64,000 bases of DNA. Origin: Escherichia coli. GTDB taxonomy: Bacteria; Pseudomonadota; Gammaproteobacteria; Enterobacterales; Enterobacteriaceae. The stretch lies in assembly GCF_017348835.2 (NCBI RefSeq), contig NZ_CP071375.1, one strand, 5' to 3'. The position numbers were made by a program. Position 1 is the stretch's first letter, and each line of letters opens with the position of its first letter. Below are positions 51,001-54,000 of the stretch, one piece after another.

Positions 51001-54000
51001 GCAAGGCACCAGGCCACCAGAGGCGATCGCGCAGTTGCGGTTGTGTCACCAACTGGACAACATTTTCCACGGGGCCAACGGAAAGTGTCTGTTGTTCGCC
51101 AGGCAGATAAATAGTCACCGTTCCTTGCGCAAAGGCATGGGGTGTCATTACGTAAAGTACGCTGGCAATGAAATACGACTGTAATTTATTCATGGTGCGG
51201 GTTTAAGAAACGTCATTTCTACGGGAATAACCCCTGCGCCTAACATTTGCCGACTTTGACGAACCTGGCCAGTAGCCGAATCGACCCAGAATGTGTTTTG
51301 CCACTGTTTTTCTGGCAGCGTGGAAGTCACCTCTTCCTGCCAGACATTACACAGCACATCGCGACCCGCAATATTCAGCGTCTCTAATCCAGCAAAGGAA
51401 AAAGTGGAACTCAGGGTCGCAGAGCGAAAATGGTTGTCTTCACTCCAGAGAATATCGCGCGTCCAGCGGCTGCCGTCTTTTATTGCCAGCGCGTTACGCA
51501 GAGGGTCCTGCCCGGAATTTGTCACTTCCAGCAGATTATTATTAAGTTTGACGGTCTTTAAAAGACGTCCATTATGGGTAACCAGCATGGCGTTATCCTG
51601 GGATAACCATTTGCTTTGTTCTTGTTCTATATATCCCAGTACCACAAAGATTCGTTGCCCTTCATTAAGGCGTAAATACATCGTGGAATAAGGCAACGCC
51701 TGGATCTGCTGATCCGCTACGGTGATATCCTGATTATCGAAAAGGCTGGCGCGAAATGTATCGACCATACTTTGCTGGCTGTGCGTACATCCCGCAAGAA
51801 ATAGTGCGAAAATCGATAAAATAAGAGGGCGCACCTTTAATCCTTGAAAGGTTAATTAAAAAAATGCAAATCTCTAAAGCCCGGTACGAATATCGCAACC
51901 GGGTATTATTTAACTTTAATTTCGACGCGTTTAAGCAGAATTAGCGCGTAGTGGACGTGGTGGTTGAGGTGTTATGAGAACCGCCATCGCCACTGTCATT
52001 TGCTGCAACTACTGCCAACGTCGCCACACCAACAGCCGTTGCCACACCGACAACTGTCGCCGTGCCGACAGCGCCAGCAGCCACGCCACCAGTGGTAGCA
52101 GCCGTCGTGGTTGCACCGGTAGTGGTCGTTGTGGTGCCAGTAGTACCCGTCGTTGCCTCGGTCCCGTTTGCTGCTTCAGGGGCAGCAAACGCAGCTGGCG
52201 TCGTCAACATGAAGGCCATAAGGATTGCAGAAAGCTTGTGTTTCATAACTTTTCCTTTATTCATCGCATGGACAATACGTACGCTTGAGATCAGGATTGT
52301 CTACTTTGAGTATAACATCCTTGTGAAATCTCCCTTTCCTCATACCGCTTGCACTATATACAGCGGGTGAGAAAGGCGCGCAGAGGGAAATATAAGATTG
52401 TTAACTATTCCCCTCTGGAAATACGACTTGTGAGCATAAGATAAATCTTAGCAAAATACAAATTAAAGATAAGAAAATTGTTAAGAAAGCTATTAACTAT
52501 TGTTGGCAATATAGTTTCAAGTGGTACTATAACTCGCTGTTAAGTGGCATTTATAACTATTAGGTGCAGAGATATTCGGTTAAATGGATTAGTTTACCGG
52601 TGAAAAAGTAACTTGTGTTATAATACATGGTGTTGACTATTGAACTATGCCAATAAAACCAGTCAGCTTTAAACAAGCAGCGTCATATTAAGAGAGATAA
52701 ACATTTGCCGCTGTTGGTCCTCGCAGGCCATTTACGCGGCAAAATTCCACGCGTAATCCTGGTATAAGCACTTCTGCGTCGCGGGGAGTGAATGCGGAAA
52801 TATGGACCTGGACTTCTTTACGACCGTCGGAGGGGATAATGAATCCTTTGCCGCTTTTGCGATCAAAGGTTTTGACAATTCCTGTCATTTTACGGGACAA
52901 ACAAATTCCTTACTGAAAATACTGCGCTGCACTATACGGGGTTAATAAAATAAAGCCAGCGATATTTAAGACCGCCGGACGGCTAAAATAAAATTTGCTT
53001 AATCTCAATTATCATGCGTTAATAGCTGCGTCGGTTTGAAAGACAGACAGCATACAAAGTAGTTTACTAAAGCAGTTCTCATTATCAGGCATTATCCCCT
53101 TCTTTTGAGTCTCTCTCCTGAACACTAAGTAGTTTCTGTATTAAAGCCCTGTTTGCCGAAAGGCCCAAAATGAAGGAAGTAAAATATGTCTAATAAAATG
53201 ACTGGTTTAGTAAAATGGTTTAACGCAGATAAAGGTTTTGGCTTTATCACTCCTGATGATGGCAGCAAAGACGTTTTCGTCCATTTCACCGCCATCCAGA
53301 GCAATGAATTCCGCACGCTGAACGAAAATCAGAAAGTTGAATTTTCTATTGAGCAGGGGCAACGTGGCCCCGCGGCAGCGAACGTTGTTACGCTCTAAGG
53401 TTGCCGTTATTACTCAACATCTCCATTTCCGCTGTCCATGTTGTCATGGTTCACAGTACCGCACATCGGCATTCGATGTGACGGAGCGAAACCCTTTGGG
53501 CGCTAAGTGTATTTTTTGTAAATCGACGATGATCACCTTTGATAACGTCGCGCTGCAAATACGCACTGACCATGCGCCGCTGGATTTCACAAAATAATAT
53601 CAGGCTCCCTCGTGGAGCCTTTTTTATATCTGCCTTATTTTTCTTCAACGCTGTATGTATAGTAAGCGATAACCTGTTGATTATTGAATCTTTCGGGGAG
53701 ATGGCTTATAACATTTCTTACCTGACCAGGGTACCGGGAACCAACACCTTACTGGCGTGTTGCTGTCTTTCAAGACCAGACGAGGTTAACAGTGAATATT
53801 GAAGAGTTAAAAAAACAAGCCGAAACGGAAATCGCCGACTTTATCGCGCAAAAAATCGCCGAGCTGAACAAGAATACAGGGAAAGAAGTCTCTGAAATTC
53901 GCTTCACCGCACGAGAAAAAATGACCGGGCTTGAAAGTTATGATGTCAAAATCAAAATAATGTGATTTTGTGAACATCACCCGTGCGAGGTGATGTTCCG

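Follow-up and report, generated by a model that had tools for sequence, protein, structure and literature searches.

Gene content and intactness of the gfc locus

The 64,000-nucleotide stretch of Escherichia coli DNA analysed here (contig NZ_CP071375.1 of assembly GCF_017348835.2, referred to as the window) carries the gfcABCDE-etp-etk cluster, the operon for export of the group 4 (O-antigen) capsule. The cluster occupies positions 44532-52246 on the minus strand, between cspH and appA, the latter (43084-44412, plus strand) bounding its far side. All genes are co-oriented in the order gfcA-gfcB-gfcC-gfcD-gfcE-etp-etk, and neighbours either overlap or lie at most 106 bp apart. The interval that had drawn attention, 51835-52687, comprises the gfcB-gfcA spacer, gfcA itself and the spacer upstream of it. 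Coordinates (Table 1) were obtained by mapping the open reading frames (ORFs) of the window onto the RefSeq annotation of E. coli PE164, in which the segment 51700-53000 is 100% identical.

The seven products were compared by global alignment with those of three genomes: the K-12-type NZ_CP071124.1, enterohaemorrhagic E. coli (EHEC) O157:H7 EDL933 and enteropathogenic E. coli (EPEC) O127:H6 E2348/69, on which a large share of the published studies of the group 4 capsule was carried out. All of them have the reference length, contain no internal stop and show 98.0-100% identity, which bears out the claim of the original prediction that the reading frames of the whole cluster are intact. GfcE is 100% identical to all three reference proteins, Etk is 100% identical to that of EDL933 and 99.9% identical to that of K-12, and GfcB is 100% identical to its E2348/69 counterpart, while GfcD and GfcC show 99.4-99.6% and 98.0-99.6% identity, respectively, to the three references. 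Etp shares 147 of its 148 residues with the K-12, EDL933 and E2348/69 protein, the lone difference, D55Y, being present also in PE164. GfcA is 100% identical to that of EDL933 and is annotated in both PE164 and EDL933 as 'threonine-rich inner membrane protein GfcA'. This low-complexity protein gave no Pfam match at 1e-5; the other six products match the expected families, among them Etk with Wzz, WZC_N, GNVR and AAA_31. The start codon of gfcA, an ATG at 52246, is preceded at 8-9 nt by AGGA.

The gfc operons (ymcDCBA-yccZ-etp-etk) of EPEC E2348/69 and EHEC EDL933 have the same seven genes in the same order, the same location between appA and cspH and the same 441-bp spacer length, and they differ from the window by point changes only, their proteins being 98-100% identical. 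The K-12 locus, too, has the same genes with intact frames and 98-100% identical proteins. Paralogues of both halves of the operon, described in PMC8592465, are found at other chromosomal sites and serve to export different polymers: the exopolysaccharide operon yjbEFGH is the paralogue of gfcABCD, with which it shares the Pfam families YjbF and YjbH, and wza-wzb-wzc, for group 1 and colanic acid export, is the paralogue of gfcE-etp-etk, with Poly_export/Wza_C, LMWPc and Wzz/GNVR in common. Judging from its position and near-identity, the locus in the window is the gfc orthologue and not a yjb or wza paralogue. The gfc locus is orthologous across thousands of genomes at 97-100% identity, and chance resemblance is not an issue. 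Gene order, orthology to the EPEC and EHEC operon and an uninterrupted upstream region were all found in the window.

The region upstream of gfcA lacks the IS1D insertion of K-12

The original prediction placed a short, insertion-sequence-free region between gfcA and cspH, and its coordinates proved exact. The 441-bp spacer aligns end to end with those of EDL933 and E2348/69 and contains no inserted element; 5 of the 441 positions differ from the former and about 25 from the latter. Its G+C content is 35.6%, versus 51% for the operon.

When the segment 51700-53000 was compared by BLAST with the K-12-type genome, it was matched as two colinear pieces, 51700-52279 and 52271-53000, which overlap by 9 bp and are parted in K-12 by 768 bp, the flanking DNA being 96-98% identical. 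The insert is a complete IS1 of 768 bp, with the ends GGTGATGCTGCCAACTTA... and ...TAAGTTGGAGTCATTACC; its terminal inverted repeats read GGTGATGCTGCCAACTTA... and, as the reverse complement, GGTAATGACTCCAACTTA..., and a 9-bp target duplication, GACAATACG, borders it on both sides. It is annotated as 'IS1-like element IS1D family transposase, programmed frameshift' (insAB-4) on the strand opposite to gfcA. In the window the target is present in a single copy, that is, as an empty site. The K-12 insertion named in the original prediction was thus seen directly, and the alignment with NZ_CP071124.1 gave no uninterrupted K-12 region.

The element, inserted 25-33 bp before the gfcA ATG, is the sole structural difference between the gfc locus of the window and that of K-12. 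The native sequence left before gfcA in K-12 amounts to 33 bp, essentially the Shine-Dalgarno region, and the other ~410 bp have been moved 777 bp away. Published papers likewise describe an IS1 in the ymc/gfc promoter of K-12 and not in pathogenic strains.

The original prediction also held that this IS1 silences the operon, which is stronger than the literature allows. Despite the insertion, K-12 reportedly expresses etk in certain conditions. Moreover, a study by genomic systematic evolution of ligands by exponential enrichment (SELEX) predicted an RpoD 'constitutive promoter' directed toward gfcA in the gfcA-insA4 spacer of K-12, TGGAGA-18-TACACT (PMC3946193). In our comparator (K-12 locus L001, 9581-9635) this predicted promoter lies wholly within the end of IS1D, reads outward and is 58 bp from the gfcA ATG, so that the residual etk expression in K-12 may stem from it. 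'Silences' is thus somewhat too strong a word, although the insertion itself is real.

Table 1. Features of the gfc locus and its upstream region in the window
Feature	Position	Strand	Description
etk	44532-46712	-	BY-type tyrosine autokinase / polysaccharide co-polymerase, 726 aa; full-length ORF
etp	46732-47178	-	Low-molecular-weight phosphotyrosine phosphatase, 148 aa; Pfam LMWPc
gfcE	47166-48305	-	Wza-like outer-membrane polysaccharide export protein, 379 aa; Pfam Poly_export, SLBB, Wza_C
gfcD	48351-50447	-	YjbH-family outer-membrane protein, 698 aa; Pfam YjbH, 898 bits
gfcC	50447-51193	-	248 aa; Pfam Caps_syn_GfcC_N and Caps_syn_GfcC_C
gfcB	51190-51834	-	Lipoprotein, 214 aa, GTG start; Pfam YjbF
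gfcA	51941-52246	-	Threonine-rich small membrane protein, 101 aa
Conserved proximal block B	52247-52319	-	73 nt; 97% identity to E. albertii; leader, Shine-Dalgarno sequence, extended -10-like TGTTATACT
Native gfcA upstream (regulatory) region	52247-52687	-	441 bp, insertion-sequence-free; colinear with EDL933, E2348/69, MOD1-EC7003 and E. albertii
Empty target site of the K-12 IS1D	52271-52279	.	GACAATACG, single copy in the window, duplicated in K-12
Conserved block A	52370-52469	-	90% identity to E. albertii, 99% to EPEC and EHEC
cspH	52688-52900	-	Upstream neighbour bounding the regulatory region; ORF, annotated cspH in every compared genome

Distribution of the uninterrupted state

The frequency of the uninterrupted site was estimated in 5426 complete E. 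coli genomes by means of a 200-bp probe that has the IS1 target at its midpoint and is too short for copies split by IS1 to be rejoined. The probe matched at all in 3615 genomes; in 3179 of them a single unbroken match spanned at least 80% of the probe, and these were scored as uninterrupted. A 140-bp probe for the K-12 gfcA/IS1D junction was positive in 413 of the 5426, and the junction-positive examples among those listed are genomes of about 4.6 Mb in which IS1D is annotated. About a third of the sample (1811 genomes) gave no match to the gfcA start or the proximal upstream sequence covered by the 200-bp probe; in sampled genomes with a match to cspH only (e.g. ST131), the annotation has cspH and appA as direct neighbours. 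The uninterrupted gfc locus is therefore the majority and commonest state in E. coli.

Relatives were sought by scanning species-representative genomes with a degenerate GfcB pattern, which returned nine loci. Two of them, those of E. albertii and of the cryptic-clade Escherichia sp. MOD1-EC7003, share the cspH-spacer-gfcA-gfcB arrangement and contain an empty target site, and they are the only ones of the nine with cspH next to gfcA. The loci of Superficieibacter and other Enterobacteriaceae matched in gfcB alone, at 64-70% identity, and were not used. Since the site is uninterrupted in both E. albertii and MOD1-EC7003, the uninterrupted allele is, on this distribution, the ancestral one and the K-12 allele a lineage-specific derived state.

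Conserved blocks and candidate promoters in the gfcA leader

A five-way alignment of the spacer gave a clear phylogenetic footprint with two conserved blocks, termed A and B (Table 1). For comparison, the whole stretch from cspH to gfcB shows about 85% identity to E. albertii, and the distal half of the spacer (52687-52520) shows 52-58%. Block A contains a candidate promoter with a weak -35/-10 pair, TTGTAT (52461-52456) and TATGCT (52438-52433), spaced by 17 nt. In block B, which extends to the start codon, the extended -10-like sequence is found at 52317-52309, and we infer a second candidate promoter there. The two blocks probably hold the gfcA promoter. Since the target of the K-12 IS1D falls within block B, downstream of both candidates, the insertion would disconnect either of them from gfcA.

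Within block A, a hairpin is predicted on the minus strand at 52417-52381, with a 12-bp stem, a 13-nt loop, a folding energy of -16.5 kcal/mol and a z-score of -3.2; no T-run follows it. E. albertii and MOD1-EC7003 retain the stem, with A-U in place of the single G.U pair of the window. The hairpin could be a structure of the 5' leader, a palindromic DNA operator or the 3' end of the cspH transcript.

Other searches of the spacer were made with known elements and repeated motifs. An Rfam scan of 51500-53600 at E<=1 returned no RNA family in the gfcA upstream region, and a sub-threshold hit to isrG inside gfcA (15.5 bits, where the gathering score is 100) was put down to chance. In the same scan, the leader and coding region of the neighbouring cspG (53030-53452, plus strand) matched the cspA thermoregulator RF01766 at 158.8 bits, the gathering score being 78, which fits a cold-shock gene. 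An RfaH/ops (JUMPStart) element, GGCGGTAGnnTG, was also rejected: the best match, AGCGGTATGAGG at 52349, has two mismatches in the 8-nt core and is not conserved, as it falls where the spacer varies most, the three strains reading GCAAGCGG, GCAAGTGG and GCTGGAGG. The motif TWRACTATT (AATAGTYWA on the gfcA strand) is clustered, with three copies in the 441-bp spacer (plus strand, 52401-52409, 52493-52501 and 52633-52641) versus four on both strands of the whole window, and none of 5000 shuffles reached three; the shorter ACTAT/ATAGT occurs eight times in the spacer, a number reached by one of 5000 shuffles. However, TWRACTATT is only partly conserved in E. albertii and was not retained as a regulator site, no regulator being assigned to it.

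Proposed working of the operon and alternative explanations

We consider it very probable that the group 4 capsule export operon of the window is the uninterrupted, ancestral allele, at its usual position and with its native 441-bp upstream region, and that this allele would function as proposed here. According to the literature, the seven gfc genes are co-transcribed in EPEC and are all required for the capsule, Etk and Etp act in a tyrosine phosphorylation cycle, GfcE is a Wza-like channel, and GfcABCD are regarded as accessory proteins. By analogy, transcription in the window would start in one or both of the conserved blocks, and a single mRNA would cover the seven genes, in keeping with what was published for EPEC. 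Tyrosine would then be phosphorylated and dephosphorylated in a cycle by Etk and Etp, GfcE would form the outer-membrane channel with GfcABCD as accessory factors, and high-molecular-weight O-antigen polymer would be exported by the system to form a capsule, as long as the strain makes O antigen and conditions permit expression.

No evidence contradicts the structural statement, and the points that weigh against this reading concern function. EHEC and EPEC are both uninterrupted upstream of gfcA, yet the level of gfcA mRNA in EHEC was about 30-fold below that in EPEC, and no EHEC capsule was seen in N-minimal medium (PMC3853201). A consensus scan of 51800-53200 for sigma-70 promoters and terminators yielded nothing on the gfcA strand, with sites not above those in shuffled sequences, so the promoter is not placeable by such a scan; in the searchable literature we found no mapped gfc promoter, transcription start or regulator. 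Of the K-12 terminators assayed for Rho ATPase, the zone in gfcA ranked first in rate (PMC9160355), and since it stimulates Rho so strongly, expression downstream of gfcA may need conditions that overcome polarity. Two residues, Etp D55Y (codon 47014-47016) and GfcD E55K (codon 50283-50285), are absent from all three reference strains and are the only such residues in the seven products. Finally, the polymer of the capsule is the O antigen that the strain itself makes, which calls for Wzy-dependent O-antigen genes, and that cluster is located beyond the 64-kb window. An intact promoter region is thus no guarantee of a capsule; from the gene content, capsule production by the source strain is plausible and probably condition-dependent. 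The original description of the cluster as potentially functional stands as far as the intact frames are concerned, and it is still only potential, given the low gfcA mRNA of uninterrupted EHEC and O-antigen genes that lie beyond the window.

The same observations could mean that the operon is intact but quiet, weakly transcribed in ordinary conditions as in EHEC O157:H7, so that the strain would be mostly unencapsulated even without an IS1. We regard this as quite possible, if somewhat short of probable. The spacer is closer to that of EDL933 than to that of E2348/69, it is AT-rich and lacks any strong match to sigma-70 promoters on the strand of gfcA, and the low mRNA of EHEC, together with its negative capsule stain, and the stimulation of Rho by gfcA point in the same direction. 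However, such quietness is a matter of regulation and not of structure, and it is compatible with an ancestral, functional allele. Furthermore, both EPEC and EHEC are described as having the genes for an active group 4 capsule export operon, and earlier work summarised in the same paper has the capsule made early in host-cell contact and down-regulated later (PMC3853201).

It is rather improbable that the capsule pathway is broken elsewhere, either by the missense changes in Etp and GfcD or by a missing or defective O-antigen cluster, leaving the strain without a capsule despite its intact frames. Although the two changes occur in none of K-12, EDL933 and E2348/69, and the substrate is not verifiable from a window that lacks the O-antigen genes, both changes are shared with the natural pig isolate PE164 and are therefore standing polymorphisms, probably neutral. 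Residue 55 of Etp belongs neither to the C-X5-R-(S/T) active-site motif, which the sequence places at residues 13-20, nor to the DPY loop of low-molecular-weight phosphotyrosine phosphatases. Moreover, O antigen is made by most wild E. coli. Precise excision of IS1 between its 9-bp duplications occurs at low frequency, but a derived empty site that had lost a former IS1 in this way, for which there is no specific support, was rejected as next to inconceivable on the distribution described above, with an empty site in 3179 genomes of unrelated lineages and in two other Escherichia species against an IS1D junction in 413.

The presumed gfcA promoter/leader has two strikingly conserved blocks. 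Block A, with its hairpin, and block B might form an uncharacterised cis-regulatory leader that sets the expression of the group 4 capsule, a speculative suggestion to which we attach a low probability. Such a leader could counter the strong Rho-dependent termination inside gfcA, or bind a regulator or a small RNA.

The observation itself is confirmed and ordinary, since the IS1-interrupted form is an already known peculiarity of laboratory K-12. It carries little weight as a discovery. As annotation it is of use, in that the genetic capacity for a group 4 (O-antigen) capsule is seen to be retained by the strain.

The adjacent prophage

The first 34 kb or so of the window (1-34077) have no counterpart in K-12 and represent the late half of a lambdoid prophage abutting a tRNA-Ser(UGA) gene (34123-34210, minus strand). 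The window begins inside this prophage, so that it shows neither the left end nor the integrase. The prophage is 98.5-98.7% identical to prophages of the EHEC strains O145:H28 RM12761 and O103:H2 12009. A trio of phage tRNA genes (3490-3739) follows the Q antiterminator region; ARAGORN reads it as Met(CAT)-Arg-Arg, the first being tRNA-Ile in RefSeq. About 490 bp past the trio, a SASA/NanS-p-like carbohydrate esterase of 616 aa is encoded at 4229-6079. The trio and the esterase reproduce the late-region layout of Shiga toxin (Stx) phages, but the window prophage has no stx ORF and leaves no room for one.

At the end of the prophage, a gene for a TccP2/EspFu-like effector (32438-33190, minus strand) comprises a 250-aa proline-rich ORF with 47-residue repeats (…PLPDVAQRL.QHLAEHGIQPARNMAEHIPPAPNWPAPTPPVQNEQSR…), and its counterpart in O145:H28 is annotated 'EspF repeat-containing protein'. 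An espV fragment (33636-34034, minus strand) lies beside it. The effector-like gene and the espV fragment suggest an attaching-effacing host strain, and the context known for the EPEC capsule would therefore apply here. In EPEC, the group 4 capsule contributes to resistance to an antimicrobial peptide, human alpha-defensin 5, and in the earlier work summarised in the same paper its later shut-down lets the type III secretion system reach epithelial cells (PMC3853201).

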